57,938 nucleotides of DNA from an uncultured Bacilli bacterium (GCA_934085875.1 CAKOHQ010000002.1:1-57938); one strand, 5' to 3'. Counted from the stretch's first letter, positions 13,992 through 27,890 are shown. Translations and numbers: made by a program. Notes: generated by a model from the sequence alone, not told the origin.

Positions 13992-14004
13992 GAATTGTCA
14001 CATC

Positions 14005-14823
14005 ATGGAATACGATAATGTTATAAATAGTCTTTTAAAATCAAAAAAAGAATACTATTCATTAGAGGCAAATATAAAAGAAAATTCTATTGATAATATA
14101 AAACCATTAGATATAAATTGTTCTTTAGGAGATCAAATTAAATATTATCGAGAAATAAAAAACATTAAACAAAAAGATTTAGCAAAAGAATTAAATATAG
14201 ATAGATATACTCTTCACTGCATTGAAAATAAAAAAAGCAAAATTATTTTTTATCCAGAAACTATTAATAAAGTAATAGATAAACTAGAAATAAAAGATAA
14301 ATTAATTTGGAATGATTCTTATGAAGAATATATTATCAAAAACAACCGAAACATTTTTAAAGAATTTAGAACAAAATATAATTTAACTATTAAACAATTA
14401 AGTAAACTTTTAAATGAGCATATTTCAGCAATTGGTACATGGGAAAGAAAAAATACAATAATATCTAGAAAAAAATATTATGAAATATTAAATAAACTTA
14501 ATACTATTACAAAAGAATATATAGATAATTATTTTGAAACAGACTATACATTATTTATAAAAAATAATCCACATAAACAAATAGTAGATTATATTAATAA
14601 AGAAAATATAAGTTTAAAAGAATTTTCTAAAAGAATAAATAGACATGAATATACAATAAAAAGACTATTAAAGGAAAAAACCTTGGTATCAGAAGATATA
14701 TATAATCAATTTATAAAATTAAAAGAAAGACAAGACAATAATGAAATTCATAGTGATGAATACATAAAATTTATAAAAAGTGGTTATCCTACTATCATAA
14801 AAGAAATGCTTAAAAAAAAATAA
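14005..14823 (+). CDS. multi-HTH XRE-family protein (three helix-turn-helix repeats, with a fourth out of frame downstream)
   Basis: Repeats QKDLAKELNIDRYTLHCIENKKS, IKQLSKLLNEHISAIGTWERKNT and LKEFSKRINRHEYTIKRLLKEK. The open frame extends up to 13978 across the left junction. Confidence 0.6.
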   Translation: MEYDNVINSLLKSKKEYYSLEANIKENSIDNIKPLDINCSLGDQIKYYREIKNIKQKDLAKELNIDRYTLHCIENKKSKIIFYPETINKVIDKLEIKDKLIWNDSYEEYIIKNNRNIFKEFRTKYNLTIKQLSKLLNEHISAIGTWERKNTIISRKKYYEILNKLNTITKEYIDNYFETDYTLFIKNNPHKQIVDYINKENISLKEFSKRINRHEYTIKRLLKEKTLVSEDIYNQFIKLKERQDNNEIHSDEYIKFIKSGYPTIIKEMLKKK

Positions 14824-14965
14824 TTTATCGGCATCTAAATTCACGAAAAATAATAATATTCATAATGATACTATAAGAAAGTGGATATATGGTATTGCAA
14901 TTCCCAAAAAAGGAAGTTATGAGAAAATTAAAAAATATCTATAATTTATTTCAAATAAAAAAGTT

Positions 14966-14986
14966 GCACTAGTCAAAAACTAGTGC
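14966..14986. terminator. bidirectional hairpin terminator between convergent genes
   Basis: GCACTAGT-caaaa-ACTAGTGC, with T-rich tracts on both strands. Confidence 0.55.
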
Positions 14987-14987
14987 G

Positions 14988-15197
14988 CTATTCTTTTTTA
15001 CTTTTTTTTGAATAATATAAATCATGCCTTTCCTTGGCAATCTCAACCATTTTTTTATATAATCTATTTTTAGAATCTACATCAACATCCATTTTATCAA
15101 TCGCTGAAGATAATATCATAGCTCTGCATTTAGCACAATCAGATATTAATTCTTTTATTTCTTCAGGATCTGTTGGATAATTAACTATTACTTCCAT
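14988..15197 (-). CDS. hypothetical small protein (element cargo)
   Basis: 69-aa ORF downstream of the T4CP remnant, followed by a terminator. Confidence 0.35.
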   Translation of the reverse strand: MEVIVNYPTDPEEIKELISDCAKCRAMILSSAIDKMDVDVDSKNRLYKKMVEIAKERHDLYYSKKSKKE

Positions 15198-15228
15198 ATA
15201 TTCCCCCTTTGCTTAATTTATATTTTTT

Positions 15229-15573
15229 TTAAGAATTTTTATGTATTTCAATAATCGTTGTATTATTTACTACATCTATTTTAATGATAATTGAATTATT
15301 CGCTAAAAATTTAATTCTATCTCTATCATCTCCACCAATTATAAAATCTTCTATAACTATTTTACAAAATACAGAATAATTACATGATAGATAAGATATT
15401 TCATAAGTTTGATTAATTAGAATATCTTTTATATTTTCTACTATTTCTTTATAACTTTCTTTCATACCATCTATAAAAAAATTAAATTCTTCTTTATTTT
15501 CTATCTCATCTACTTTTTTTGCTTGATTTAAATCTTCAACTGTATAATACGTATTTGATAAATCTTTTAACAT
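15229..15573 (-). CDS. hypothetical protein (element cargo)
   Basis: 114-aa ORF, co-oriented with its neighbours. Confidence 0.35.
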   Translation of the reverse strand: MLKDLSNTYYTVEDLNQAKKVDEIENKEEFNFFIDGMKESYKEIVENIKDILINQTYEISYLSCNYSVFCKIVIEDFIIGGDDRDRIKFLANNSIIIKIDVVNNTTIIEIHKNS

Positions 15574-15610
15574 TTGTGGAGTTCTAGTTATTTCACCAGA
15601 TCTATAACAA

Positions 15611-16483
15611 CTAAATTTTTTTATATACTACAGTATCTCTAAATATAGGATATCCTATAATAGGAAATATTATAGTTTTATAATGTAATTGTTTAACTTC
15701 TTCTGGTGTTAATAAATCTCTACCAATTAATGAATATGTTCTATTACCATCATACGTTACTTTTCCGACAGATTGACTGACCGAATTTGATTCGATTGTT
15801 TTTTTACCTAGTCTTTTACTTATAGCTTCCGCTGTTTCTTGTGTATTAGTTTTTAAATAAACAAGACCACAGTTATCTAAAATAATCTGAGCTACATCTT
15901 TACCATATACATTATCTAATTGAGAAAATGATTGTATAAAAAATTGAAATCTCATACCTCTAGATCTTGCTACTGATACTATTGATTCTATACTTGGTTC
16001 TTTTAATGGTGGACAATTTGCAAATTCATCTAATAACCAATCAATTTGAATTGGAAGTTTTTTATCTTTATTACTATTCGCCAATTTAACTAATTCTCTA
16101 TATAAAAGACCAATAATTATTGTTATAAGTTTATAATATGTTTTATCTTCATCTGGAACTATGATATAAAATGCAGTAATTTCTTTTCCTAAAATATCAA
16201 ATTCAAAATCACTAGTAGAAGTAATATTAGCAACATTAACATCATCAAATAACGACATTTTTTCTGATAGTGTCGATACAATAGATTTATAAGTATTTTC
16301 AGCAGAAACATATATAGATGCTAAACTATCTTTACTTTTTGTTCCATATGGTTTTTTATCTATATATTCTTTTAATTCTTCAAAATTTTCTTCATTCATA
16401 GATGAATTTTGAAACTTTTTAATACTTGTTAATGTTATTTGACTTTCATCTATTTTACCTTCTTTATACTCTTCTAAAACCAA
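15611..16483 (-). pseudogene. C-terminal fragment of a VirD4/TraG-type type IV coupling protein (conjugative-element remnant)
   Basis: Walker B region and beyond (IQIDWLLDEFANCPPL ... ARSRGMRFQFFIQSFSQL). The N-terminal TM and Walker A half is absent, and the reading frame runs into an oppositely oriented XRE gene. Confidence 0.7.
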
Positions 16484-16695
16484 TTATTTTAGAATATAAA
16501 CAATATATTGAAAATTTAAAAAAATTTAGAGAAGAAAAAAATTTAAAACAAAAAAATTTATTTATTTTATTAAACATAGCATCATCTTCATATTCTGTAT
16601 ACGAAACTAGCAAAGTTCTAATTCCTACAATATTTTTATATAAAATAGCAAAAACCTATAATTACTCAATCGATAAATTATTAGGAAAAAAATAA
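16426..16695 (+). CDS. XRE-family HTH protein (start uncertain, possibly 5'-truncated)
   Basis: IENLKKFREEKNLKQKNLFILLNIASSSYSVYETSK...SIDKLLGKK. There is no good ATG near the expected start, and the upstream part of the ORF is antisense to the T4CP fragment. Confidence 0.45.
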   Translation: MLMLFDFHLFYLLYTLLKPIILEYKQYIENLKKFREEKNLKQKNLFILLNIASSSYSVYETSKVLIPTIFLYKIAKTYNYSIDKLLGKK

Positions 16696-16785
16696 AAAAA
16701 CATAATTTTTAGTAATTTATGTTTTTGTTTTTTATATAATGCTTGATTTTCTTATTTAGTTTTGATATATTAATATTGTTGTTAA

Positions 16786-16862
<77 letters not shown>

Positions 16863-16893
16863 TTAAATAAACAAAAAAATATAATTTAAACTG

Positions 16894-18255
16894 TTATATT
16901 TTTTTTAATACTTTTATTTCATCTTTTACAAGATTTTCTAAAGTTATAGATTCGTCTATTTTTAATTGTACAGATAAAGTTTTTAAGATATTTACAAAAT
17001 CTTTTCTATCAATACTTATTTTTTCATTAGTTTTAGTATTTTCAATTTCAAAATATTTGTCATCTACTTTATGTCCTAATATCAATAAATATGGAGTTCC
17101 CATATAATGAGCATCTTTTATTTTAGCACCTAAACTTAAATCATTTCTATCATCATATAATAAAAATACTCCATTTTTAATTAATTCATTATATAAATTA
17201 TCAGCTAAATCAATACTATCTTTATTATCATTAGTTATCATATGTAAATGATATGGTGCTAAATTTAAAGGTAATGAGTATCCTATTACATTTTGATTTT
17301 TATCATAAATTGCATTTTTTTCGTATACATATGCTAAGACTCTACTAACACCAATTCCATAACATCCCATTTCATAAGGTATTTGTTTTCCACTTTCAGA
17401 AATATAACATGCCCCCATAGATTCAGAATATTTAGTCCCTAATTGAAAGATATGCCCTAATTCTAGTGTTCTTTTCTTTTCTAGTTGCTCTATACCATCA
17501 ATATTATATATTTCTTTTAAATACTCCATAGCATTTGATAATTCTAATAATTCACTATTAATTGCTTGTCCAGATTCATTATTATATAATACAGTATCTT
17601 CTCCTAAATCTGAAATTACCATAAATTCTTCAGATTTTTTACCACCTATACTGCCACTATCAGCTCCAACTGGAAAAACATCCATACCTAATCTATTAAA
17701 AATATTAAAATATGCTTGTTTCATTTCAGCATAAGTTTTATCCAAATCATCTGAATCGACATTAAAACTATATGCATCCATCATTTCAAATGATTTTCCT
17801 CTTAATAAAAATCCTCTTGCTCTTAATTCATTTCTGAATTTTTCACCTATTTGAAAATATGTAACTGGTAATGATTTATATGATTGAAGTCTATTTTTAG
17901 CAAATTCAACAATTGCTTCTTCAGCAGTTGGTGCCAAACAATAATTTCCTTTAGATGTTATAGTTCTAAACATCACATCATCTGATACATATTTATCTAA
18001 TCTTCCAGATGCTTCCCAAATTGATTCAGGTTGTAGCACAGGTAATGACACTTCAACACATCCAGCTTTAGTTAATTCTTCAGAAATAATTCTTTTAATA
18101 TTATTTTTTAATAAAAATGGTATATTATCATAAGCGTAAATACCACTAGAATATTGTGTTAATTGTCCAGTTTTAGATAATATATCTTGAACTGGAAATT
18201 GCGCATCAATATTTAAAACTTTATTTCTTGCTATTCCCATTTTTGATAATTTCAT
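16894..18255 (-). CDS. proS: proline--tRNA ligase, bacterial-type but lacking the INS editing domain
   Basis: Motif 2 FRNELRARGFLLRGKSFEMMDAYSF, motif 3 GCYGIGVSRVL, and a C-terminal anticodon-binding domain. About 453 aa from MKLSKMG; the ORF track start is 18279. Confidence 0.85.
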   Translation of the reverse strand: MKLSKMGIARNKVLNIDAQFPVQDILSKTGQLTQYSSGIYAYDNIPFLLKNNIKRIISEELTKAGCVEVSLPVLQPESIWEASGRLDKYVSDDVMFRTITSKGNYCLAPTAEEAIVEFAKNRLQSYKSLPVTYFQIGEKFRNELRARGFLLRGKSFEMMDAYSFNVDSDDLDKTYAEMKQAYFNIFNRLGMDVFPVGADSGSIGGKKSEEFMVISDLGEDTVLYNNESGQAINSELLELSNAMEYLKEIYNIDGIEQLEKKRTLELGHIFQLGTKYSESMGACYISESGKQIPYEMGCYGIGVSRVLAYVYEKNAIYDKNQNVIGYSLPLNLAPYHLHMITNDNKDSIDLADNLYNELIKNGVFLLYDDRNDLSLGAKIKDAHYMGTPYLLILGHKVDDKYFEIENTKTNEKISIDRKDFVNILKTLSVQLKIDESITLENLVKDEIKVLKKI

Positions 18256-18314
18256 AAATTCATCTCCCTCATAAATCATATTATAGCATAATAATTAAAT
18301 TGTTGCTATTCCTT

Positions 18315-19196
18315 TCAAACATTAATATCAAATTCTTCTTTCAATATAGCTTTTATAATTTTGGTTCTTTCTTCTAATAAATCTTCTTTATAAAATTTAT
18401 TATTAAATCTTGTTGGATCATATTGTTCTATATGAACAAATCCAAAATCCCGATAACATAAATCCATACTAGCAAAACTAGGATTTTGTTCTAATCCATA
18501 TGATAACATTTTAGCATCTGAATTATCAACTAAATATCTAAAAAAAGAACCAATATCAAAAAAGCAATTCTTATGTTCTCCTTTAATTAAATCAAAATTA
18601 GGTTGTTTTTTAATCCAATTTATGTATTTATTATCCTCATTTAAATCAAACCAATAATGCCCCACAAATAATGGATAATCTAAATTTTTATTACTAATAT
18701 AATCTTTATAAATATTGTTATTTACACAAAACAACCATGTACATATCCTAGGTGCTATTAACATACATTTTTCTTCATTTATATGATATGTACTTTTATA
18801 TTCTAATAAATCTGTTTTCCAAGAAACTAACATATTATCTGTATTTTTTAAATCAGATAACATTTTTTCAAGAACATTTTCTTTATATAAAAATATGTCA
18901 GCATGCATTATAAAAAAATAATCATAATTTTTATTACTTATCCAATCTATAAGGCATTGTTTATATAAACCACCTCTATTGTTTTTATAATACTTTATTC
19001 TTATTTCATTATTTATTTCTAGTATATTTTTAATAGAAAAATTTTGTTCTATTTCATCATTTGTATAATCTACTAATAAAAATAAATCAAATTTAAAACT
19101 TACATACTTTTTTAATGATGCTAGACATAAAATTAAACTATCTATTTTATTACTAGCTCTAAATGGAATTCCAATCGCTACTTTCTCTTGATTCAT
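18315..19196 (-). CDS. GT-A-fold glycosyltransferase-like protein (tentative)
   Basis: VAIGIPFRASNKIDSLILCLASL...FDLFLLVDYTND and FFIMHADIF resemble the GT2 N-terminal Rossmann fold and DxD-like region. Confidence 0.35.
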   Translation of the reverse strand: MNQEKVAIGIPFRASNKIDSLILCLASLKKYVSFKFDLFLLVDYTNDEIEQNFSIKNILEINNEIRIKYYKNNRGGLYKQCLIDWISNKNYDYFFIMHADIFLYKENVLEKMLSDLKNTDNMLVSWKTDLLEYKSTYHINEEKCMLIAPRICTWLFCVNNNIYKDYISNKNLDYPLFVGHYWFDLNEDNKYINWIKKQPNFDLIKGEHKNCFFDIGSFFRYLVDNSDAKMLSYGLEQNPSFASMDLCYRDFGFVHIEQYDPTRFNNKFYKEDLLEERTKIIKAILKEEFDINV

Positions 19197-19205
19197 AATA
19201 CCACC

Positions 19206-20045
19206 TTAAATATCATCTAAATTAGGTGTTAATTTATAATTAACCTCTTTATACTTTTTATCAACTTTATTCCATAATTCATCAACTGTATTATTTATTA
19301 TATTACCTAAATAAAAATCAGTTTCTTCTCCATTTATATAAAAAGGATGTAAATAAACATTACCATTTGCTCTAACTAAAAAATGTTTTCCTTCAGCCCA
19401 TTTAAATAAACGATATTTACATTCAATTTTGTTTTTATATTTTTCAAATATATTATTAATTACTTCATCATTAGGTAAATTTTTCATATTTTTAGCTTTC
19501 CCAATATTTAAGATCGGAATCAAAACAATTTCATATATGTTAAATTTTACTAAATCGTCAATAATTTGATCTAAGAATTTAATATTTTCCTCAAATAATG
19601 GTATATTAACTTGAATTTTAACATTATTTTCACTTAATAACTTTATAGTATTAATAACAGTCCTATATCTAAACAATTTATTTTTAGTTATTTTTAAACA
19701 ATCTTCGTCAGTATAACCATAAATTGATACTCTTATTAATTTAAAATTTTTAGATAAATCCTTAATATTTTTATCTGTTATAAACGTTCCATTTGTATCT
19801 AATGTTATTTTTGTATCCTTAGGATTTATATTATTAAAAATATCAAAAAAAGAAGGATATAACAGCGGTTCCCCTCCTGTTATACTAATAGAACTAATTC
19901 CTTCATCAATACTTTTCTGTATTATATTTATCCATTCACTATAATTTAAATCATTGTCCTTTTTATTTGCAAAACAGTGTATACAATTTAAATTACATTT
20001 ATCTGTTATTTCTATAATCATTCTTGACGGTTTTTCTAAATTCAT
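19206..20045 (-). CDS. radical SAM protein (MoaA/NifB/PqqE-like core)
   Basis: CNLNCIHC (Cx3Cx2C) near the N-terminus and ISITGGEPLLYP. Confidence 0.75.
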   Translation of the reverse strand: MNLEKPSRMIIEITDKCNLNCIHCFANKKDNDLNYSEWINIIQKSIDEGISSISITGGEPLLYPSFFDIFNNINPKDTKITLDTNGTFITDKNIKDLSKNFKLIRVSIYGYTDEDCLKITKNKLFRYRTVINTIKLLSENNVKIQVNIPLFEENIKFLDQIIDDLVKFNIYEIVLIPILNIGKAKNMKNLPNDEVINNIFEKYKNKIECKYRLFKWAEGKHFLVRANGNVYLHPFYINGEETDFYLGNIINNTVDELWNKVDKKYKEVNYKLTPNLDDI

Positions 20046-20048
20046 AAA

Positions 20049-21194
20049 TTACACCTCATATTCTTGAATATCCCACTCCAAACCAGAAATTCTATTATTT
20101 TTAGACCAAGGTATTCTTAAATCATATTTTTTTGACATTTCATAAATAAACTTATATGCTTCTATATAATAATCAATATTTTTATTTTGATAATCCTCAT
20201 TTAAAATTGCACCAGGTGTAGGATAAAAGATAGTACCAGATGAAAAACATCCTTTTTTAGCTAAAAACTCTATTCCATCTTTTAATGATTCTATACTTTC
20301 CAATCCTAATACAAAATTAGTTTTTACAAAACCTTTTTTATATCTATTACAAAGTAAATCAAACATTTCAATATATTTTTCTCTACCAAATATACTTTCT
20401 TTTCCAGGACATAATTTTTTAAATAAATTTTTATCCCATATTTCAATATTAATTGAAATCATACCTAATCCAATATCATACAATTTATCTATCAACTCTA
20501 TTGGTATGTTTTGAGCAGGTACAAATACAGTATTAGCTAATAAAGAAACTCCATTCTTTCTTTTTTTTATTTCGTTAAACAATTTTTCAAAAAAAGCATA
20601 TTCATCAACATTAAAATGTGTCCCAGTTGACATAAAAATATAATTTGGTTTGTATTCTTCATTAGCAATATCAAAAGCCCATAAATATTCTGATAACAAC
20701 GTTGTATCATCAAATTTATCTTTAATTGCATTTACACCACAAAATTTACATTTTATATCAGTTCTATCAAAATCACAATGTAATTTAGGATATATTCTCA
20801 AGCAATCCTCACCCATAATATTTACATATTTTTTTAATGGTATGCCTAATGGAGAAATCTTATTCAAAAAATTTGGTAATTTATCAACAAGAATATTTAT
20901 TTTTATACCATCATAATTTAAATATAAGTTGTTATCTTTTATAAATAAATTAAATTTACTATTCTTATTGCTTCTTGTTTCAATTCTAATTTTATTACCT
21001 TTATATTCTGCAATTATTTCATTTGGAACAAATTTCTTTGTATCATGATAATTAAATAAACCATGACTTGCTTCTTTACTACCATTTGAAATATCTACTA
21101 AAAATTCTTCAACATCTGGATTTGAAAAATTCAAACCATTTAATAATAAATCTATTTTTAATTTTAATAATACGTTAAAATCTTTACTATCCAT
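20049..21194 (-). CDS. radical-SAM-like TIM-barrel protein with a non-canonical Cx8Cx2C motif and a roughly 130-aa N-terminal extra domain
   Basis: HCDFDRTDIKCKFCGV. The downstream segments (IFMSTGTHF, MISINIEIWD, NFVLGLES) resemble the radical SAM partial barrel. Confidence 0.45.
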   Translation of the reverse strand: MDSKDFNVLLKLKIDLLLNGLNFSNPDVEEFLVDISNGSKEASHGLFNYHDTKKFVPNEIIAEYKGNKIRIETRSNKNSKFNLFIKDNNLYLNYDGIKINILVDKLPNFLNKISPLGIPLKKYVNIMGEDCLRIYPKLHCDFDRTDIKCKFCGVNAIKDKFDDTTLLSEYLWAFDIANEEYKPNYIFMSTGTHFNVDEYAFFEKLFNEIKKRKNGVSLLANTVFVPAQNIPIELIDKLYDIGLGMISINIEIWDKNLFKKLCPGKESIFGREKYIEMFDLLCNRYKKGFVKTNFVLGLESIESLKDGIEFLAKKGCFSSGTIFYPTPGAILNEDYQNKNIDYYIEAYKFIYEMSKKYDLRIPWSKNNRISGLEWDIQEYEV

Positions 21195-21203
21195 AACTAT
21201 CTC

Positions 21204-22025
21204 CTATAATTCATGTTTTTTATTATATAATTCCCTTAATTTTTCTAATTTTAATGGTGTAGGTATTATTTCATTGTTTTTTTCTTCCATTATTTTATTA
21301 GCTAATTCTTTAAAAATATCAGCTAAATCAGAATCAGGTAATTTTTCAATAATTGGTTGATGATAATCACAACATTCTTCAATTCTATTATCCCTAGGAA
21401 TCATACTAATTAATGGAATATTAATTGCTTTTGAAAATGACTCTATTATTTCTTTTTCATTTTTTATATTTCTACAATTACCAATAATACCTACTAATTT
21501 AACATCATTATATTCTAAACAACTATTTATATATCCATAAGCAAGATTATTAGCAGCGAATAAAGAATTAAATTCTCCAGAAGTAACAATATACATTTCT
21601 TGTGTTTTTCCACTTCTTAATGGTTCAAAAAAACCACCACATACAACATCACCCAAAATATCAAATAAAACCAAATCCAAATTTTCATCATCTAAACAAT
21701 TAAATCTATTCAACGTTTCTAGTCCTTTAATTACTCCTCTTCCAGCACAACCTACTCCTGGTCTAGGACCACCTAATTCAACACATTTTGTTCCAAATTT
21801 ACCTTCAACAACAATATCTTCAACTTTAATATCACTACCTTTTTCCATAATTTTATTTAAAGCAGTTTCATCTGTTTTATCTGACAATAATAAAGTAGAA
21901 TCATGTTTAGGATCACAACCTATTTGTAAAACTTTTTTTCCCATAAATCCTAATGTAGCTGATACATTTGATGATATAGTTGATTTTCCAATACCACCTT
22001 TTCCATAAATTGCTATTCTTTTCAT
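21204..22025 (-). CDS. NifH/BchL/CfbC-family ATPase (nitrogenase iron-protein-like)
   Basis: P-loop IYGKGGIGKST, 4Fe-4S ligand contexts VGCAGRGV and GDVVCGGF, and GCDPKHDST. ATGA overlap with the upstream NifD-like gene. Confidence 0.9.
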   Translation of the reverse strand: MKRIAIYGKGGIGKSTISSNVSATLGFMGKKVLQIGCDPKHDSTLLLSDKTDETALNKIMEKGSDIKVEDIVVEGKFGTKCVELGGPRPGVGCAGRGVIKGLETLNRFNCLDDENLDLVLFDILGDVVCGGFFEPLRSGKTQEMYIVTSGEFNSLFAANNLAYGYINSCLEYNDVKLVGIIGNCRNIKNEKEIIESFSKAINIPLISMIPRDNRIEECCDYHQPIIEKLPDSDLADIFKELANKIMEEKNNEIIPTPLKLEKLRELYNKKHEL

Positions 22026-23222
22026 CGTTTGCCTCCTTCATAATTAACTAAATACTCTGCAAAACGTATTGCACCTTCAAAACCAGCGAAATCTTCTTTT
22101 GGTCTAAAAATAGTCTTATAAGGATAAACTATTTCTCCAAATGTAGAAAAAACAAAATCAGGTTTTAATTCTTCTATAATTTTTCTTAAATCATCAGAGT
22201 TTTCCTCTATTAAAACTTTATCAGTGAATTTATAATAATCTTCTTTATTAAATTCTTCTAATGATTTTTCAGTAAAAATACACTTTATTTTAATACCTAA
22301 TTCATTTAACAAATTTGCATACCCTAAAGACCTCCTATTTCCGCTTATAATTATTGCTGTCTTTCCATTTAACTTATCATAAAATTTTTTTAACTCTTTT
22401 TTTGTTTTTATATATATGTTTTGATAATCTCTATTTTTTATATTAAAAAAATTAAATATCTCTTCTAAAATCGAATATGAATTTTCAACACCAAAAAAAC
22501 CAAAATTATTATATATAGAATGAATATTAAATTTATTTTCTAATTTTTTTGCTATATTTTTAGATGCATTATTACAGACAACATAATTTAATTCAGCACT
22601 CCCAATGTTATTTATTTCTTCAATAGTAGAAGTTGCTGGAAATATGGTATTTACTTTTATACGACCAGCAGTTAAATATTTTTTTAATTCTTGTGTAGTA
22701 TTTAAATTAATATTAAATTCTCCTAAGATATTTAATGTGTTTTTTTCTTTATTTATATTATTATCACTTAATGAATCAATTAATAGATTTCCAGCGTTAA
22801 TCATACCAACTTTATGATCTCCTTTAAATCCAGCACTATTTAAAGTAAATATTTTACAACCTAATTTATCCCCTAATAAATTTGCAACATCTTTTATGTT
22901 TTCTCCAATTATTTCTGTAACACAACAATTTAAAACAAATATTATTTTAGGATGGTATTTATTATAAATATCATTAATAGCTCTCTCTAATTTTTTTTGT
23001 CCTCCAAAAAACAACATCATCATCATTAAAGCATGTGCTAAAAATTCTAGGTCCTGAATGTTCAACTGTATCTTTATATCCATTTAATATCATAACTGAA
23101 TTTCTACAAAAAAACGAGCAACCAGTTGGTCCATGTATTAGACATACTGTATCCTTTAAATTTGCCAAATATCTCAATGCTCCAAACAAATAACAAGATC
23201 TAAAAGGTTCTTCATAATTCAT
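22022..23222 (-). pseudogene. NifD/NifE/BchN/CfbD-family subunit (nitrogenase component-1-like), split by a +1 base in a homopolymer at 23006-23011
   Basis: CLIHGPTGCSFFC ... STCFNDDDVVF, then after a frame switch GGQKKLERAINDIY...IIFVLNCCVTEIIGENI. About 399 aa if the frame is repaired. A GGAG RBS precedes the ATG at 23222. Confidence 0.8.
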
Positions 23223-23232
23223 ATTAACACTC

Positions 23233-24036
23233 CTATATTCTTCCACAAGCACTTGAAGTACATTGTGAACATTTATTTATCATTGGAAATCCCAATTCTT
23301 TTAATTCTTTTACTTTATTCTTGAAATTATCTAAATATAAATCTTTATCATAGTTAAATTGATTATTTATTTGTCTTAAAGGTAATAAATTAAAACAATC
23401 AACACCCATTTTTAATAAAAAGCTAAACATACTATTTATTTCATTATCATTTATATTTGGAATATATATAGTATTGATTTTTATTTTTACATTTCTGTCT
23501 TTCATATCTTTAATTATGCTTTTCTGTTGATTAATGATTTCATCCGCCTTTAAAATACCATCATTTACAGAACGATATAAAAATTTCATTTTTCTAATAT
23601 CTAAAGTATTTATAGTTAAAGTTAAATACTCTAACTTATTTAAATTTTTTATTCTATTGATTACATTATTATAATTATATCCACAAGAACAAATACATAA
23701 TTTATAATCTTTATATTGTTCATTCATAACTTCATTTAAAATTTCAAGATTATCCATATTATCTAATGGATCTCCAGGACCACTAACACCTATTATATTA
23801 ATCTTAGGAAATATTTTTGTTTTTTCTTCTAAATATTTTAACATTTCTTCTCTATTATTAATTACAAGATTTGATGTTCCAGGTCTGTTTTCTATATTAA
23901 TACCTACATTTCCATCCATAACATAATTACAATATTTGCATCCCATTTTACATACTTTCGCAATAGGAATATGTATTCTGCCATATCCGAGATCATTGCT
24001 ACTTGTATTAAAACAAGAATGAATTTCGTTTTTCAT
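23233..24036 (-). CDS. NifB-like radical SAM protein (minimal form without a NifX-like domain)
   Basis: HSCF...GRIHIPIAKVCKMGCKYCNYV...ENRPGTS...IGVSGPGDPL...LTLTINT... C-terminal CSQCTSSACG. This parallels NifB HPCY...ARMHLPVAPxCNxxCxYCNR...ESRPGV...GIAGPGDPL...CxQCRADAxG. Confidence 0.8.
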   Translation of the reverse strand: MKNEIHSCFNTSSNDLGYGRIHIPIAKVCKMGCKYCNYVMDGNVGINIENRPGTSNLVINNREEMLKYLEEKTKIFPKINIIGVSGPGDPLDNMDNLEILNEVMNEQYKDYKLCICSCGYNYNNVINRIKNLNKLEYLTLTINTLDIRKMKFLYRSVNDGILKADEIINQQKSIIKDMKDRNVKIKINTIYIPNINDNEINSMFSFLLKMGVDCFNLLPLRQINNQFNYDKDLYLDNFKNKVKELKELGFPMINKCSQCTSSACGRI

Positions 24037-24044
24037 ATTAATCC

Positions 24045-25475
24045 CTACTTTTTGTTAAATTCCTTTATTTTTTTCTTAGCATGAGTAGTTTGCACTTTAT
24101 CAATCCAATCAATTCTAGGACCATATGATAATTCATCAGTTATTATTCTGACTCTATCTTTATTAGATAATCTATAATCAACTGATACAAACTCATCATT
24201 AACAAAAGCCCCAACCATAGTATTACCTATATCTGTATGAATTTTATAAGCTAAATCTATTGGTGTTGATCCTTTTGGTAATTCTATAATATCACCTTTT
24301 GTTGTATATACATATATCCTATCTGAAAATAATTCATTTTTTACTTGACTTACAAATTCTTGATTATCCCCAAATACAGAATTAATTTCTATTAATGATT
24401 TAAAAAACTGATATTTTTTCTTTAAATCATTTTGCATTATATCTCTTGCTTTTCCTTTTTCTAAATCCCAATATGCAGTTAAACCAAACGAAGCAATATT
24501 GTCCATATCAAAAGTTCTAATCTGAGTTTGAACTAATTTATCTTGTGGACCAAATACTGTTGTATGTAAACTTTTATACATATTTGTTTTTGGATTACAA
24601 ATATAATCTTTAAATTTATCATTTATTGGATGATATTCATGATGTATTAAACCTAATGTTCGATAACAATTTGATATGTCATCAACCATAATTTTAAGTG
24701 CTAATAAATCATGTATATCTGATATACGTTCTCCTTCATTTAATCTTTTGTATAAGCCATAAATATTTTTTGTTCTTACTTTTATTTGATTAGGAATATT
24801 ATTTTCACTTAGAATCATATTTATATTATTTAACATTTCATTTAAGCAAGATTCAGAGTCTAATTCTATTTTTTGTTTTCTTAACTCTAAGTCTTTATAT
24901 GTATCTGGCTTTAAATATCTTAAACATAAATCTTCTAATTCACTTTTAATTCTATATGCTCCTATATAATAAGCAAGAGGAACAAATATTTCCATTGTTT
25001 CTAATGAATTTTCTTTTTGTTTAAATTCGCTTTTAAATTCTAATGTTCTCATATTATGTAATCTATCTGCAAGCTTTATGATTATTATTCTTACATCATC
25101 TGTTATTCCTGTAATTATTTTTCTAGTATTGGCATTGTTTTGATCTAATTTAGAAGAAAAATTCATCTTTGCTAATTTCGTAACACCATCAACCAAATTT
25201 GCAATATTTTGATTGAATTCATGAGATATATCTTCTTTAGTAATATTAGTATCTTCTATTGTATCATGTAAAAGTCCTGCACATATCGTATCTTTATCAG
25301 CATGAATTTCAGCAAGTATATATGCTACATTTAAAGGATGTGATATATAAGGTTCTCCACTTTGTCTATATTGTCCCTTATGAAGATTATCTGCATAATC
25401 ATATGCTTTAGATATAATATCTACTTCTTCTTGATTATAACTTTTTATCAAATTAATTAAATCTTTCTTTTCCAT
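24045..25475 (-). CDS. RelA/SpoT homolog with HD hydrolase, synthetase-like and TGS domains only (no helical/ZFD/ACT C-terminal region)
   Basis: HKGQYRQSGEPYISHPLNVA, HDTIEDT and KLADRLHNMRTL (hydrolase); RTKNIYGLYKRL and YKSLHTTVFGP...QTQIRT (synthetase-like); TGS YVYTTKGDIIELPKGSTPIDLAYKIHTDIGN. 476 aa. Confidence 0.85.
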   Translation of the reverse strand: MEKKDLINLIKSYNQEEVDIISKAYDYADNLHKGQYRQSGEPYISHPLNVAYILAEIHADKDTICAGLLHDTIEDTNITKEDISHEFNQNIANLVDGVTKLAKMNFSSKLDQNNANTRKIITGITDDVRIIIIKLADRLHNMRTLEFKSEFKQKENSLETMEIFVPLAYYIGAYRIKSELEDLCLRYLKPDTYKDLELRKQKIELDSESCLNEMLNNINMILSENNIPNQIKVRTKNIYGLYKRLNEGERISDIHDLLALKIMVDDISNCYRTLGLIHHEYHPINDKFKDYICNPKTNMYKSLHTTVFGPQDKLVQTQIRTFDMDNIASFGLTAYWDLEKGKARDIMQNDLKKKYQFFKSLIEINSVFGDNQEFVSQVKNELFSDRIYVYTTKGDIIELPKGSTPIDLAYKIHTDIGNTMVGAFVNDEFVSVDYRLSNKDRVRIITDELSYGPRIDWIDKVQTTHAKKKIKEFNKK

Positions 25476-25494
25476 AATATTCCTCCTATCAAAT

Positions 25495-25534
25495 AAAAAA
25501 ATGGCGACAAAAATAACAGGTAATTATTTTGTCG
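25495..25534 (-). terminator. intrinsic terminator inside the 5' leader of the RSH/nif-like array (candidate attenuator)
   Basis: Minus strand: CGACAAAATAA-ttacctg-TTATTTTTGTCG followed by T7. It lies about 10 nt upstream of the AGGAGG RBS of the RSH gene. Confidence 0.55.
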
Positions 25535-25684
25535 TCACTTTAGACATATCTATTTCAGAAAAGTTGCTTAATAAAAGAAAGTAAACAGAATATAGTTTAC
25601 AAATGTATAATATAAAACTAATTAATACTATAACATTTTTTACTCTCATATCACAAAAACCTTCCCAAAAAATATATTGTATTA

Positions 25685-25714
25685 ATAATACCACTTATAA
25701 AAAGATAAAGTCAA
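25685..25714 (-). promoter_or_regulatory. candidate sigma-A-type promoter for the RSH/nif-like array
   Basis: Minus strand: TTGACT, then 18 nt ending in TGg, then TATTAT. Confidence 0.4.
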
Positions 25715-25811
25715 GCATAAATACTATAAATTATAAAAAATAAAATAAAAGTACATGATTTGAAATATGCGACAATATGTGATATATTAAATTTATTAAT
25801 GGAGGTATTTT

Positions 25812-27500
25812 ATGGAAATAATAAAAAAACATGTTATTTATGCAAGAAAATCTAAATATACTGGTAAAGGAGAAAGTGTTGATAATCAAACAGAATTATG
25901 CAAAGAAAAATTAAAATTAAAATATCCTGATATTGATTTAGAAAAAGATGTAGTTTATTTAACAGATGAAGGATTTACCGGAGCTAACACAAACAGACCA
26001 GCATTTCAAGAAATGATGAAATTAGTAAAAGAAAAAAAAGTGTTATCTGTTACATGCTATAGATTAGATAGAATAAGTAGAAATGTTGGGGATTTTTGTG
26101 ATTTAATTAAAGAATTTGAAAAATATGATGTAAGTTTTTTATCAATTAGAGAGGATTTTGATACAGTTACACCTATGGGAAAAGCTATGATGTTAATGAG
26201 TTCTGTATTCGCTCAATTAGAAAGAGATACTATTGCAGAAAGAATTAGAGATAATATGTTAGAACTTGCTAAAACTGGAAGATGGTTAGGTGGAACTACT
26301 CCTACTGGATTTAAATCAGTAGAAATTAAAAATATTACTGTTGATGGAAAAACAAAAAAACTATTTAAATTAGAAGAAATTCCAGAAGAAAAAGAAATAG
26401 TATTATTATTAGTTAATAAATATAAAGAAATAAAATCTCAAACAGGATTAGAAACTTATACTATTCAAAACAATATCAGTACAAAAAGAAATAAAAAATT
26501 TACAAGATGGTCACTAGTAAATATCCTATCAAATCCTGTATATGCAGCAGCAGACGAAGATAGTTATAACTATTTTTTAAATAAAGGAGCTAATGTAATT
26601 GGTGATATAAAAGATTATGATGGAAAACATGGATTAATGGTTTATAACAAAACAAATCAAACTAATAATAACAACAAAAAAGAAACTCCTATTACAGAAT
26701 GGATCGTTGCAATTGGAAAACATAAACCTTTTTATTCAGGAAGTGAATATATAAAAATACAAGATTTATTAAAATTAGGGGCTGATAAAAGATTTAGAAA
26801 ATCTGCAGTAAATAATGCTTTATTATCAGGCTTATTAAGATGCGAACATTGTGGAAGTTTTATGAGACCAAAATTAAGTAGAAATACAGATAAAAATGGA
26901 AATAAAAAATTTAAATATCTTTGTGAGTTAAAAGATAAAAGCAGAAAAACAAAATGTAATACTCCTAATTTAGATGGAAATGAAGCAGACAAAAAAGTAA
27001 TAGAAATTATTAAAGAACTTATAACAGAAAACAGCGATTTTTATAAAGCAATTAAAGAAATTGCAGATGGAAAAATTGGAAAAGCAAATGATAAAAATAC
27101 TGAAATAGTTAATATATCAAATATGATAAGTAAAAATGAAAAATCTATCGCTACCCTAGTAGATAGATTAAAAGAAGTACCTTCAGAAATTGTTTCTGAT
27201 ATAGCCAATGAAATAGCAAAATTAAAAAAAGAAAATAAAGTTCTAATAAGAAAGAAAAATGAATTAAACGAACATGAATCACAGTATATAGATGATTCTG
27301 AAACTGCACAAATCATATTGAACTTATTTGATAACATATATAAAAATTTTGATGAGATGGATTTATTTGAAAGAAGAACAGTTGCAAGATTAATAATTCG
27401 ATCTGCTTATAGTGATGGAAAAAATCTAACTATCAATTTAGGTGGAACAAGAATGTCAGCTAAATCACTTAATATTCCAACTAGTGACAATTACAAATGA
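25812..27500 (+). CDS. large serine recombinase (SpoIVCA-like)
   Basis: N-terminal resolvase domain (VIYARKSKYTGKGESVDNQ, YRLDRISRN), recombinase domain, zinc-ribbon cysteines (CEHCGSF...YLCELKDKSRKTKC) and a coiled-coil tail. The stop codon overlaps the sigK junction. Confidence 0.92.
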   Translation: MEIIKKHVIYARKSKYTGKGESVDNQTELCKEKLKLKYPDIDLEKDVVYLTDEGFTGANTNRPAFQEMMKLVKEKKVLSVTCYRLDRISRNVGDFCDLIKEFEKYDVSFLSIREDFDTVTPMGKAMMLMSSVFAQLERDTIAERIRDNMLELAKTGRWLGGTTPTGFKSVEIKNITVDGKTKKLFKLEEIPEEKEIVLLLVNKYKEIKSQTGLETYTIQNNISTKRNKKFTRWSLVNILSNPVYAAADEDSYNYFLNKGANVIGDIKDYDGKHGLMVYNKTNQTNNNNKKETPITEWIVAIGKHKPFYSGSEYIKIQDLLKLGADKRFRKSAVNNALLSGLLRCEHCGSFMRPKLSRNTDKNGNKKFKYLCELKDKSRKTKCNTPNLDGNEADKKVIEIIKELITENSDFYKAIKEIADGKIGKANDKNTEIVNISNMISKNEKSIATLVDRLKEVPSEIVSDIANEIAKLKKENKVLIRKKNELNEHESQYIDDSETAQIILNLFDNIYKNFDEMDLFERRTVARLIIRSAYSDGKNLTINLGGTRMSAKSLNIPTSDNYK

Positions 27501-27867
27501 AATATTAATGTATTTTAGAAATAATAAAAAACATGTACATGATGTAAGTCTAAATGATTCTATTGGATATGATAAAGATGGTAACGAAATTAATTTAATG
27601 GATGTTGTAAAAAGTAATGACGAAGATATTTTAACTACATTGCATAATAAAGATTCTGTTGAAACTCTCATTAAATATTTAAGTATACTTAACGAAAGAG
27701 AAAAAGAAATTATCATTAAAAGATATGGATTATTTAATAATGATGAATTAACACAAAAAGAAATATCCGAAAAACTTAATATATCAAGGAGCTATGTATC
27801 TCGTATAGAAAAAAGAGCACTTTTGAAAATATATAAAAAATTCTTAAAAGATAAAAAAGAATATTAA
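27499..27867 (+). CDS. sigK: sigK 3' segment (regions 3-4, spoIIIC-like)
   Basis: EILMYFRNNKKHVHDVSLNDSIGYDKDGNEINLMDVV...REKEIIIKRYGL...QKEISEKLNISRSYVSRIEKRALLKI. It continues the SigK alignment exactly where the 5' segment stops. Confidence 0.9.
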   Translation, partial: EILMYFRNNKKHVHDVSLNDSIGYDKDGNEINLMDVVKSNDEDILTTLHNKDSVETLIKYLSILNEREKEIIIKRYGLFNNDELTQKEISEKLNISRSYVSRIEKRALLKIYKKFLKDKKEY

Positions 27868-27890
27868 AAAATGTACTGCGCGTACATTTT
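27866..27890. terminator. bidirectional terminator hairpin (copy 1)
   Basis: AAAATGTAC-tgcgc-GTACATTTT, flanked by A/T runs. Confidence 0.65.

Follow-up and report, generated by a model that had tools for sequence, protein, structure and literature searches.

The window analysed here is a stretch of 57,938 nucleotides from an uncultured Bacilli bacterium. It contains an operon of eight genes in the order rel476-nflB-nflD-nflH-rSAM381-rSAM279-GT-like-proS with an adjoining tRNA-Pro gene, all of which are carried as cargo of an element that interrupts sigK. The features are as follows.

13655..13991, plus strand: 5' half of sigK (sigma-70 region 2 fragment), from Pfam labels, translation and the junction sequence
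13992..27497, no strand assigned: sigK-intervening ('skin'-type) element, ~13.5 kb, holding the operon, tRNA-Pro, TraG remnant and recombinase
15229..16483, minus strand: broken remnant of a TraG/VirD4-type coupling protein, from the ORF list and comparison with contigs L012-L014
16786..16862, plus strand: tRNA-Pro (UGG), from ARAGORN; Rfam tRNA 67.7 bits
16894..18279, minus strand: proS paralogue, last gene of the operon; TIGR00409 383 bits (cut-off 307), in two stretches
18315..19196, minus strand: GT-A-like protein, 293 aa, from AlphaFold and Foldseek
19206..20045, minus strand: rSAM279, 279-aa radical SAM protein (CNLNCIHC); Pfam Radical_SAM 76 bits, SPASM 21 bits
20049..21194, minus strand: rSAM381, 381-aa variant radical SAM protein (Cx8Cx2C); NCBIfam NF045502
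21204..22025, minus strand: nflH, NifH-family ATPase; Fer4_NifH 304 bits and NCBIfam
22022..23222, minus strand: nflD, NifE/NifD-like component-1 gene, frameshifted; corrected product 399 aa
23006..23011, minus strand: T6 run causing the nflD frameshift, from comparison with related contigs
23233..24036, minus strand: nflB, minimal single-domain NifB-type radical SAM protein, from Pfam/NCBIfam and structure-sequence alignment
24045..25475, minus strand: rel476, truncated RelA/SpoT homologue with HD, pseudo-synthetase and TGS domains, stopping after TGS
25476..25714, minus strand: predicted operon promoter and leader (TTGACT-18-TATTAT with extended TG)
25812..27500, plus strand: large serine recombinase with Resolvase, Recombinase and Zn_ribbon_recom domains
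27497..27867, plus strand: 3' half of sigK (region 4 fragment), where the reading picks up again at EILMYF...

The element and its operon

The 5' half of sigK, whose translation matches the Sigma70_r2 fragments of L012-L014, stops at ...CIQN, which is the left junction of the element, and the stop codon of the recombinase falls inside the right junction. An imperfect core, ACAAA(A)TG(G/A)AAT, is common to both. The preliminary description had placed the cluster in a developmentally excised sigK-intervening element, and this was correct, as both halves of the split gene and both junctions were found. When we compared the element with those of L012-L017 and L001, the identity was 98-99.6%, while that of the flanking chromosome was only ~84%. 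The TraG/VirD4-type remnant, present as two ORFs here and as a single 460-aa ORF in L012-L014, is probably the relic of a conjugative element within the skin element.

The cluster had been described as six tightly packed minus-strand genes at 18315-24036. The packing was confirmed (neighbouring genes are 3-10 nt apart, apart from a single ATGA overlap where nflD meets nflH), but the extent was too small, since rel476 and proS are part of the same conserved operon. The 20-nt overlap reported there was an artefact of an upstream GTG start; with the ATG at 23222 as start codon, nflB and nflD lie 10 nt apart. The hydrolase motif of rel476 (HDxxED) is unbroken, and Gln replaces the Glu of the 'LEVQIRT' motif of B. 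subtilis Rel, which we take to be the catalytic residue of the synthetase. The Rel protein of L062 shows 73% identity and the identical Glu-to-Gln change. The proS product (453 aa as called in other assemblies, 461 aa in the ORF list) belongs to those prolyl-tRNA synthetases that lack the INS editing domain, and the gene is kept in L001, L012-L017 and L061 with a dN/dS of 0.11. Its closest non-orthologous relative (63%) is also found in L062, where another Rel...ProRS bracket encloses a different biosynthetic cassette. The tRNA-Pro gene is convergent with proS at 31 nt from its stop, and the same tRNA gene is present in L012. In the leader, we observed a candidate hydrophobic small ORF of 41 aa (~25524-25649) and a predicted terminator-like hairpin (GACGACAAAA...TTTTGTCGCC followed by a T-run) directly 5' of the rel476 ribosome-binding site; the leader gave no Rfam family match, and no T-box or other known riboswitch was found.

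The D-like subunit does not exist as one ORF in this genome, and the earlier 'VVFGG' reading had merged two frames unnoticed. A +1 frameshift in the T6 run splits nflD into ORFs 22974-23252 and 22022-23083, and removal of one T gives a 399-aa protein that matches P0001 at 398/399 residues. The gene is intact (399 aa) on eight related contigs (L001, L012-L017 and L061), and T5 stands in place of T6 in the seven related contigs matched by pattern search. Over the 11 kb of element body compared with L014, no other indel occurs. The two products of the split gene, P0053 and P0054, were found on 10-13 contigs. Because of this frameshift, we suggest that the nflD copy, and with it the pathway, is probably inactive in this strain.

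The encoded proteins

NflB aligns over its full length with the minimal NifB structures 7bi7, 7jmb and 6y1x. It keeps every residue aligned to their conserved Cys and His positions (Cys7, His22, Cys29/33/36, Cys114 and Cys256/259), which are presumably the ligands of the K1, RS and K2 clusters, and all of these are retained in nine locus types. The motifs listed earlier (HSCF, CKMGCKYC, ENRPGTS, SGPGDPL and CSQC) are all present, and the score was 110.6 bits against a NifB equivalog cut-off of 343.65. NflH aligns over its full length with C. pasteurianum NifH (1CP2, 236 bits) and carries Walker A, switch I and switch II as well as the equivalents of Cys97 and Cys132, so that its description as a NifH-type ATPase with both 4Fe-4S cysteines is upheld.

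NflD has a Pfam Oxidored_nitro match, and its AlphaFold model (pLDDT 89.5) gave Foldseek TM scores of ~0.8 to NifD, VnfD, NifE and MarD. In an alignment of 38 family members, Cys10, Cys35, Cys100 and Cys216 are invariant. First, Cys10, Cys35 and Cys100 align with NifD 62, 88 and 154, the cysteines of the inter-subunit bridging cluster in NifD/NifE. Second, Cys216 aligns with NifD Cys275 and NifE Cys250, a ligand of FeMo-co or the L-cluster. Of the three cluster-ligand cysteines claimed previously, Cys64 of 'STCF' is unconserved and off the ligand position, and its place in the bridging-cluster set belongs to Cys10 (RSC). So corrected, the list survives alignment, with Cys216 as a fourth invariant cysteine that had been overlooked. 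Since this cofactor-ligand cysteine is also kept, the idea of a complex cluster is strengthened, although Cys216 by itself is insufficient proof that such a cluster would be bound.

Both H and D proteins fall outside the known families, as had been proposed. The NCBIfam scores of NflH were 301 bits for NifH (cut-off 394) and 306 bits for CfbC (cut-off 402), and those of NflD were 164 bits for NifE (cut-off 505) and 32 bits for CfbD (cut-off 268). In an exhaustive profile search of 1.84 billion representative proteins, the D family stood apart as a closed group: its 11 clusters scored 441-622 bits, and the next matches were NifEN fusions with 242 bits. Its nearest outgroups are NifEN or NifE-like. 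Among 185,579 species genomes, one carrier was found, Blautia glucerasea.

The Radical_SAM Pfam domain is present in three of the six genes described first. The rSAM279 protein is MoaA-like and viperin-like (MoaA ~79 bits, pVip 76 bits), and its SPASM-like tail is without the auxiliary-cluster cysteines. The assignment of the 381-aa protein as radical-SAM-like was borne out by NF045502 ('variant_rSAM'), which it passes with 174.8 bits against a cut-off of 125. The GT-A-like label was upheld in part: the top Foldseek matches are all of the GT-A fold, but no Pfam or NCBIfam match was obtained and the model itself is of low confidence (pLDDT 58). For one homologue, Glyco_tranf_2_5 gave a match below threshold, and the 293-aa protein probably has a GT-A fold.

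Conservation and linkage to aminoacyl-tRNA synthetases

The neighbourhood, whose conservation the preliminary description had proposed to test, is conserved: the complete operon recurs at 84% NflD identity, and the trio of NflB, NflD and NflH recurs in 12 locus architectures. The dN/dS values of all seven operon genes tested were 0.05-0.20, which points to purifying selection. No second Oxidored_nitro gene is present in the window, and no K/N-type partner of NflD or NifDK-like gene was found in any member locus. Each of these loci has one D gene with NifB-like and NifH-like genes, and the combination of one D subunit with a NifB-like gene and no K subunit therefore holds family-wide.

The neighbours of the trio in the member loci include sugar-nucleotide genes, PKS/NRPS, chorismate/PabA-B-like genes, AsnB, AMP-ligases, kinases and B12-radical SAM genes, which are typical of specialised metabolism. 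The recurrent partners of the trio are limited to GT-A-like or TrpD-like proteins, synthetases and Rel-like proteins, and the GT-A-like family, present in 5 of the 12 architectures, is mutually exclusive with the TrpD-like ('Glycos_transf_3') family. The NflD family is patchy and lies in mobile contexts (the skin element, conjugative-transposon genes, integrases and transposases).

An aminoacyl-tRNA synthetase is found in nine of the 12 architectures, with seven specificities (ProRS, two AsnRS-like, SerRS, MetRS, PheST, two HisRS-like pairs and ThrRS), while the other three have none within 10 kb. By a binomial estimate with a 15% background, the probability of such linkage by chance is ~5e-6. 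The order rel-dtd-hisS-aspS is common housekeeping synteny in Firmicutes and might account for some of the His and Asx cases. Judged by score, the MetRS of Blautia and the PheST of L018 resemble ordinary housekeeping enzymes; their cassettes are similar and the synthetases different. Four architectures contain Rel-like HD-TGS proteins, which have retained the hydrolase motif but lost the synthetase Glu. Based on these observations, the cluster is not the orphan system that had been described, since it is tied to ProRS, tRNA-Pro and a hydrolase-type Rel here and to aminoacyl-tRNA synthetases family-wide, and this changes the functional reading.

Proposed function and comparison with known systems

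We suggest, with a probability of about one half, that the trio forms a homomeric reductase which is driven by ATP and carries a cluster made by the NifB-like protein, and that it acts in a pathway of specialised metabolism linked to tRNA synthetases. NflB would build an 8Fe carbide-type (L-cluster-like) core, which would be held at Cys216 of a homodimeric NflD2 with a symmetric bridging cluster on 2 x (Cys10, Cys35, Cys100); the absence of a partner gene is the sole basis for the homodimer. NflH2, hydrolysing ATP, would supply low-potential electrons, and the enzyme would carry out a difficult reduction. Its substrate would be an organic intermediate that the neighbouring radical SAM enzymes and the glycosyl- or phosphoribosyl-transferase-like protein make or tailor. 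Because synthetases of so many specificities recur, often with a hydrolase-only Rel-like protein, we propose that the product may be an amino-acid-related or aminoacyl-adenylate-related antimetabolite. The linked synthetase (here ProRS) would be the insensitive copy of the producer, and the Rel hydrolase would dampen the stringent response that the product would set off. The undescribed reductase with a complex metallocluster, which we infer from the genes as the preliminary description did, was not refuted by placement, cysteines or neighbourhood, although the copy here is frameshifted. The skin element may also carry the cluster as passive cargo, which would speak against our reading.

With the chemistry unchanged, the synthetase might be no immunity copy at all, and might instead provide an aminoacyl-tRNA or aminoacyl-AMP building block, the travelling synthetase of each cassette fixing which amino acid is attached. 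Aminoacyl-tRNA-dependent enzymes are reportedly the subject of a review, and a tRNA-dependent step with a dedicated synthetase is known from valanimycin, as cited in the tiarin preprint (bioRxiv 10.64898/2025.12.02.691738). Similar cassettes do carry different synthetases (MetRS in L011 and PheST in L018; ProRS in the window and ThrRS in L024), and in two host backgrounds the element has tRNA-Pro directly adjoining proS. Immunity needs no tRNA, and this arrangement suits supply better. However, a tRNA gene is found in no other related locus, and that of the window may be an integration-site relic beside the TraG remnant. Moreover, the genes conserved with the core include no recognisable transferase that depends on aminoacyl-tRNA (Fem/GNAT-type, cyclodipeptide synthase or PEARL). 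We consider a supply role unlikely, though more likely than the other alternatives.

We give a slightly smaller likelihood to a reading in which NflDH, in the manner of CfbCD or DPOR, is a simple reductase with [4Fe-4S] clusters only and the NifB-like protein is a substrate-tailoring radical SAM enzyme. CfbCD has the same architecture that we propose for NflD/NflH, a homomeric D with an H partner, and no equivalent of His442 was found in the NflD family alignment. In addition, NifB homologues need not make L-clusters, as exemplified by IsrB, which accompanies a nitrogenase-like (NFL) enzyme predicted to be [4Fe-4S]-only (PMC13474568), and the low score of NflB against the NifB cut-off also counts against our reading. 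On the contrary, IsrB has the radical SAM domain only (PMC13474568), while in all nine locus types NflB also retains the putative K1/K2 ligands, namely Cys and His in the N-terminal part, a Cys in mid-protein and the CxxC near the C terminus. The Cys275 equivalent, invariant in NflD, is absent from CfbD, DPOR, COR, Isr and Group VI (PMC13474568), and NflD scored 67 bits with the BchN model and even less with CfbD, compared with the higher score for NifE.

NifE is indeed the nearest known family by profile, HMM and plasmid BLAST. NifEN also works with NifB and NifH, so NflD2 could be a non-catalytic scaffold or maturase from which the metallocluster built by the trio is passed to another protein. 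As no candidate recipient is conserved with the trio and no member locus has a NifDK-like gene, this seems improbable. Finally, a role in primary or salvage metabolism, freeing a nutrient under amino-acid or sulfur starvation with synthetase and Rel genes adjacent through shared starvation control, would fit the salvage function of Mar and Isr, the characterised Group IV NFL systems with NifB homologues (PMC13474568), the starvation link common to Rel and synthetases, and the attenuation control suggested by the leader hairpin, but is very improbable given the extremely rare, patchy and mobile family, the secondary-metabolism neighbours, the lack of a T-box or other known riboswitch and the lost synthetase Glu of the linked Rel proteins.

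Our preferred reading of a reductase in an antimetabolite pathway can be compared with known systems as follows. The more distant relatives that have a NifB-like gene all possess D/K-type pairs, whereas the NflD family has a single D. In the tiarin gene clusters, a conserved core is accompanied by synthetases that vary, and these have been shown to be immunity copies (bioRxiv 10.64898/2025.12.02.691738). They are a precedent for the logic proposed here, and the near-constant synthetase adjacency among the relatives of the operon suggests an undescribed specialised-metabolite pathway.

The nfl operon and a frameshift in its central gene

The operon, whose order is rel476-nflB-nflD-nflH-rSAM381-rSAM279-GT-like-proS, was examined by family searches together with its leader and the adjoining tRNA gene. 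The preliminary description had presented a six-gene nitrogenase-like set; most of its gene calls were borne out by these searches, but the D-like gene proved to be broken and the unit extends beyond six genes.

Features of the operon region in the window
18315-24036, minus strand: six ORFs with gaps of 3-10 nt; the nflD/nflH overlap is ATGA
24045-25475, minus strand: truncated RelA/SpoT gene (rel476), 8 nt upstream of nflB
16894-18279, minus strand: prolyl-tRNA synthetase gene (proS), 35 nt downstream of the 293-aa gene
16786-16862, plus strand: tRNA-Pro(UGG), convergent with proS and 31 nt from its stop, with the CCA end encoded
25476-25714, minus strand: operon leader with a promoter-like site, a small ORF and a hairpin

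The nflH product is a NifH-family ATPase (Fer4_NifH, 304 bits) and matches C. pasteurianum NifH (1CP2) over its full length, with GKGGIGKS, CDPKxDS, GCAGRG and VCGGF aligned. It carries Walker A, switch I and II, and both [4Fe-4S] cysteines (Cys97 and Cys132). The nflD product belongs to Oxidored_nitro (PF00148, 203 and 32 bits on its two fragments), and ATP-dependent electron transfer from an NflH2 component to the D-type component is predicted for the pair. The six-gene block also encodes three radical SAM proteins. Among the models searched, NflB is closest to NifB; the 381-aa Cx8Cx2C protein passes NCBIfam NF045502 'variant_rSAM' (174.8 bits against a cut-off of 125, profile positions 5-356 of 357); and the 279-aa protein scored 76 bits to viperins in PADLOC, the same level as MoaA. 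A role in anti-phage defence was rejected, since PADLOC returned this generic radical SAM likeness only and nothing for the other core proteins. The remaining 293-aa protein had no match in Pfam- and NCBIfam-type family searches, and its AlphaFold model (pLDDT 58, from an input alignment of four sequences only) supports a GT-A fold class and nothing finer.

Both rel476 and proS are present in every related contig, including the diverged orthologue L061, whose NflD is 84% identical. When we compared the window with L061, the dN/dS values of the seven genes from nflB to proS were 0.05-0.20 (rel476, only partial in L061, did not enter this comparison), and we therefore consider the operon to be under purifying selection in this lineage. 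The tRNA-Pro gene is common to the window and L012, a contig with the near-identical element; no tRNA gene was found in any other Nfl locus, so that an orthogonal synthetase/tRNA pair was rejected as a general feature. The tRNA may serve this ProRS specifically, or it may be left over from an old integration site next to the TraG remnant described below.

The operon leader contains a strong promoter-like site (TTGACT-18-TATTAT with extended TG), a candidate 41-aa hydrophobic small ORF (MRVKNVIVLISFILYICKLYSVYFLLLSNFSEIDMSKVTTK) and a terminator-like hairpin immediately before the rel476 ribosome-binding site. It matched no Rfam family, a sensitive scan gave chance-level matches only, and it may be an unknown attenuator. 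Control by a T-box or another riboswitch was rejected, as the sole Rfam matches at the gathering threshold were three tRNAs in the window, and seven related loci had none. A ribosomal peptide, made from the leader small ORF with a SPASM-like radical SAM protein, was also considered and found no supporting evidence.

The D-like gene had been described as a single gene. In the window it is split into two overlapping ORFs, 22974-23252 and 22022-23083, by a +1 frameshift where six T stand in a row (minus strand, 23006-23011) and the DNA reads GTTGTTTTTTGGAGG. When one T is deleted, a 399-aa NflD results that has 398/399 residues as in P0001, a database protein representing intact NflD. An intact nflD is found on eight related contigs: the seven pattern-matched contigs with the near-identical element (L001 and L012-L017) have five T at the run, and L061 encodes an intact 399-aa protein. 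The T-run is the sole indel across 11 kb of sequence shared between the window and L014, and database records (NCBI, Logan and ENA) place the split products (82 and 333 aa) on 10-13 contigs and intact forms on about 30. Sequencing error was thus rejected as the whole cause, and we therefore treat the T6 form as a real loss-of-function allele and not as a general assembly problem. The practical consequence for this genome is that the central gene of the system is frameshifted.

Metal sites and separateness of the NflD family

Residue conservation was read from an alignment of 38 NflD family members. Four cysteines are invariant, namely Cys10 (RSC), Cys35 (HGPxGC), Cys100 (NCCV) and Cys216 (VxCxNA). 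The 'STCF' cysteine, previously listed as a cluster ligand, is replaced by G, D, N or A elsewhere in the family and does not sit at a ligand position. When the PDB was searched with an NflD profile, the top match was NifE in the NifEN fusion 9i0g (226 bits), followed by NifD, and the profile alignment pairs all four cysteines with NifE and NifD ligand cysteines; the equivalents of Cys37, Cys62, Cys124 and the L-cluster ligand Cys250 of 9i0g are all kept. In A. vinelandii NifD numbering these are Cys62, Cys88 and Cys154 of the P-cluster half and Cys275, the FeMo-co/L-cluster ligand (PMC13474568). No conserved histidine equivalent to His442 was found in the corresponding region of the 38 members, where the consensus is RxDxDYxGFxG. 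The AlphaFold model of NflD, which is confident (pLDDT 89.5) and shows the three-domain Oxidored_nitro fold, superposes on NifD, VnfD, NifE and MarD with TM values of about 0.8.

NflB matches the minimal archaeal NifB structures 7bi7, 7jmb and 6y1x end to end. Across nine locus types it keeps the Cys of an N-terminal HxC, the His of RxH, Cx3Cx2C, GPGD, the Cys of C(I/L)(C/S)TNG and a C-terminal CxxC, whose Cys and His positions we take to be the K1, RS and K2 cluster ligands. Carbide insertion and formation of an 8Fe core by NflB are predicted on this basis.

The conserved residues support the view that Nfl would be a two-component system of the NFL type, whose D protein combines the bridging-cluster cysteines with the cofactor cysteine and is always accompanied by a NifB-type protein. 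In what appears to be the simplest mechanism, NflB would make an L-cluster-like core, NflD2 would bind this core at Cys216 and hold a symmetric bridging cluster, and NflH2 would give electrons with ATP hydrolysis. NifB homologues can play other roles, as exemplified by IsrB (PMC13474568), which cautions against over-reading NflB.

All scores against the curated models listed here were far below the respective cut-offs.

Scores of the Nfl proteins against family models (bits; cut-off)
NifE: 164; 505
NifD: 111; 654 (larger NflD fragment)
VnfD: 84; 823 (larger NflD fragment)
AnfD: 68; 874 (larger NflD fragment)
BchN: 67; 420
CfbD (TIGR03282): 32; 268
CfbC (NF033200): 305.6; 402
NifH: 301; 394
NifB (TIGR01290), NflB: 110.6; 343.65

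When an NflD family profile was run exhaustively with HMMER against 1.84 billion representative proteins, 11 clusters scored 441-622 bits and the next match 242 bits. Directly under this gap lie two kinds of protein: NifEN fusions scoring above the NifE cut-off, and unclassified proteins of about 390 aa that resemble NifE. When one genome was scanned for each of 185,579 species, the sole carrier was Blautia glucerasea MSK.18.94. An origin from phages or plasmids was rejected, as no family member was found among IMG/VR viral contigs and tblastn against PLSDB plasmids recovered only true NifE at 27-28% identity.

When all fetched loci were scanned with local HMMs, each NflD-family locus had exactly one Oxidored_nitro gene, and NflB and NflH were both present at every locus on a contig of sufficient length. 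Relatives at 22-27% identity all have tandem D/K-type pairs, and a third group of distant relatives has a single D gene with an H gene and no NifB-like gene. From this clean split we therefore regard 'one D plus NifB' as a trait of the NflD family; the combination first noticed in the window thus holds across the family. A separate outgroup metagenome locus (L030:4871-16096) contains at least two D/K-type pairs, a further Oxidored_nitro ORF cut by the contig end, and NifH-like and NifB-like genes; it looks like a multi-copy NFL/nif locus unrelated to the NflD family. Full-text literature searches found no description of the NflD family and none joining 'nitrogenase-like' with 'tRNA synthetase'. 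Judged from these sequence comparisons, the Nfl system belongs to the nitrogenase-like superfamily and is genuinely rare within it; its subunit make-up and genomic association are new, and we could find no earlier description.

Mobile setting, neighbouring genes and a possible product

The operon lies in an element that interrupts sigK (13992-27497).

Junction features of the element
13655-13991 and 27497-27867: sigma-factor fragments which, when joined, run from ...AKCIQN directly into EILMYF..., a sigK-type sequence

The right junction coincides exactly with the end of a 562-aa serine recombinase, and both junctions have the core ACAAA(A)TG(G/A)AAT. Related contigs show the identical layout (Pfam Sigma70_r4, Resolvase/Recombinase, Sigma70_r2). 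Thus, by its sequence features, the operon is the main cargo of a 13.5-kb skin-type element; the location originally proposed, inside an element of this type, is borne out, and excision in the mother cell during sporulation is predicted. When the window (13444-27937) was compared with L012-L014, the element was 98-99.6% identical, whereas the flanking chromosome was only about 84% identical and differently arranged; in those hosts the neighbours, serS among them, are about 40 kb away and arranged otherwise. These identities point to a recent spread of the element between species, in which the sigK insertion site appears to have been kept.

Two further genes of the element were observed. A TraG/VirD4-type coupling-protein gene (15229-16483, minus strand), of which every copy is truncated and the window copy is in addition divided into two ORFs, is probably a conjugative-element remnant inside the skin element. 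At the left end, a 281-aa multi-HTH protein (13978-14823, plus strand), for which PADLOC gave weak matches ('HTH_VI', 'mad1' and control proteins of restriction-modification systems), may be the regulator of the element.

We distinguished 12 locus architectures. All-against-all clustering covered the first nine; for three metagenome loci added later (L021, L024 and L026), gene labels come from BLAST, Pfam and local HMMs.

Gene families in the 12 architectures
NflB, NflD and NflH: 12 of 12
GT-A-like 293-aa family: 5 of 12
TrpD-like 'Glycos_transf_3' family: 5 of 12
Adjacent aminoacyl-tRNA synthetase: 9 of 12, with 7 specificities
Rel-like HD-TGS protein: 4 of 12

Synthetases by locus
Window: ProRS
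L008 and L020: divergent AsnRS-like
L009: SerRS
L011: MetRS
L018: PheS and PheT
L019 and L026: HisRS-like pairs
L024: ThrRS

The GT-A-like and TrpD-like families never co-occur, which suggests equivalent roles. Other neighbours are variable and biosynthetic-looking: sugar-nucleotide enzymes, PKS/NRPS, AsnB, AMP-ligases, kinases, aminotransferases, further radical SAM enzymes, and a GATase with a chorismate-binding and chorismate-mutase fusion and a U32 protein. In the Blautia-type loci (L011:12989-16305 and L018:12942-16559) the nfl trio is interleaved with four genes, for a U32-family protein, a class-I glutamine amidotransferase, a chorismate-binding/chorismate-mutase fusion and a TrpD-like protein, a set presumably akin to aminodeoxychorismate (PapA/PapB-type) chemistry with a phosphoribosyl transfer after it.

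Rel476 ends after the TGS domain and has an intact HDxxED hydrolase motif. It has Gln in place of the Glu of 'LEVQIRT' in B. subtilis Rel, the synthetase catalytic residue, and because of this replacement Rel476 is probably hydrolase-only. The four Rel-like HD-TGS proteins of the 12 architectures likewise retain HDxxED and lack the synthetase Glu or the motif as a whole. The RelA/SpoT homologues listed below, that of L062 among them, all keep HDxxED and TGS and have either Gln for the Glu of 'E-x-Q-I-R-T' or no such motif.

Cluster-linked RelA/SpoT homologues
Window 24045-25475, minus strand
L062:5039-6478
L009:16305-18293
L020:8296-10080

In three loci a 356-396-aa protein adjoins the linked RelA/SpoT homologue, with an HTH match in two of the three and a sub-threshold match in the third. 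L062 (2992-10653) is a cassette with no nfl genes, in which a LysRS-like gene is followed by Rel479, radical SAM, PIG-L, a 175-aa gene, WbqC and ProRS. Its ProRS is the nearest non-orthologous relative of the window ProRS (63% identity), and its Rel is 73% identical to Rel476 with the same Glu-to-Gln change. Based on these likenesses, we therefore conclude that the Rel-ProRS bracket travels as a unit around differing biosynthetic inserts. The cassette also suggests a wider class of Rel-synthetase brackets whose biosynthetic inserts can be exchanged.

Specialised metabolism is the setting indicated by neighbours that vary and by a distribution that is both mobile and patchy. By analogy with the tiarins, compared below, the recurring but variable synthetases would indicate a product that targets the matching synthetase. 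We favour this reading, in which ProRS would be an immunity copy and the Rel hydrolase would protect the producer from a stringent response of its own making. In the main alternative, the synthetase, accompanied in the window by its own tRNA, would supply an aminoacyl building block. At least nine synthetase-adjacent loci among 12 would arise by chance with P of about 5e-6, our own estimate with a generous background of 15% per locus. Against over-reading the link, MetRS and PheST resemble ordinary housekeeping enzymes, three architectures have no synthetase, and rel-dtd-hisS-aspS is a common housekeeping synteny in Firmicutes.

Our boldest reading, to which we give a probability of about one in four, is that a homomeric NifE/D-like protein, with a NifB-made carbide cofactor and a NifH-like ATPase, might reduce an organic intermediate in the making of antimetabolites whose target, or whose maker, would be an aminoacyl-tRNA synthetase. 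The module would spread among gut anaerobes on mobile elements including the skin element, with an immunity kit made of an insensitive synthetase and a hydrolase-only Rel. If true, secondary metabolism would for the first time be seen to use nitrogenase-cofactor chemistry, and the family may extend complex-cluster chemistry to natural-product biosynthesis in gut anaerobes. Nitrogenase was long regarded as the sole enzyme with a complex, carbide-containing iron-sulfur cofactor, and only recently have others come to light, in Mar and in the activation complex of methyl-coenzyme M reductase. As a minimal version, with one structural subunit and NifB-like and NifH-like proteins, the Nfl family would offer a simple system in which to study the making and the use of such clusters, and would bear on the proposed evolution from a homodimeric ancestor to D/K heterotetramers. 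The linkage to synthetases of seven specificities is a concrete, testable handle on the target of the product, and B. glucerasea MSK.18.94, as a cultivable carrier, opens the way to experiments.

Comparison with known systems

A 2026 review of NFL systems has no 'one D plus NifB' entry; in it CfbCD is the simplest system, Group VI is without NifB, and Mar and Isr are D/K heteromers (PMC13474568). By every measure (the 9i0g profile, NCBIfam and the plasmid tblastn) NflD is nearest to NifE, and as in the NifB-NifEN-NifH system it is partnered by NifB-type and NifH-type proteins. However, it has no NifN-like partner, being unpaired and unfused, and no NifDK; it is about 400 aa long without the N-terminal extension, and it is surrounded by genes for specialised metabolism and tRNA synthetases instead of nif genes. 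Nitrogenase proper (Nif/Vnf/Anf HDK) differs by its D and K pair (alpha2beta2), absent from the window and from every member locus. Nfl shares the Cys275 equivalent (Cys216) with these enzymes but lacks His442, and falls below the NifD, VnfD and AnfD cut-offs.

MarBHDK (Group IV-C NFL) needs a NifB homologue, has P- and L-like clusters, and keeps the Cys275 equivalent with His442 absent (PMC13474568). Nfl likewise has a NifB homologue and the Cys275 equivalent and no His442. Mar, however, is a D/K heterotetramer in sulfur-salvage loci, whereas NflD is without a K partner and a curated match; neither the K gene nor the sulfur-salvage neighbours of MarBHDK and IsrBHDK (Group IV-F) were found at Nfl loci, although the NifB homologue is present. 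CfbCD of F430 biosynthesis (Group IV-B) and the D-only Group VI resemble Nfl in having a single D-type subunit with a NifH-type reductase. They have no NifB homologue and no Cys275 equivalent, and use two cysteines per subunit for a [4Fe-4S] cluster (PMC13474568), whereas Nfl always has an adjacent NifB-type gene. No cfbABE or tetrapyrrole context genes were seen among the window proteins and neighbouring genes scanned.

With regard to the genomic setting, tiarins have a conserved core flanked by synthetases of many specificities, which were shown to be resistant duplicates (bioRxiv 10.64898/2025.12.02.691738). Nfl clusters likewise have synthetases of differing specificity around a conserved core, but tiarins are ribosomal peptides made via YcaO/SagB-type enzymes, and none of those genes is conserved at Nfl loci. 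The skin elements of Bacillus and Clostridium resemble the window element in the split sigK, the large serine recombinase at one end and the short core common to both junctions; the window element differs from them in that its cargo is a biosynthetic-type operon, and in its 98-99.6% identity between hosts with flanks of only about 84% identity.
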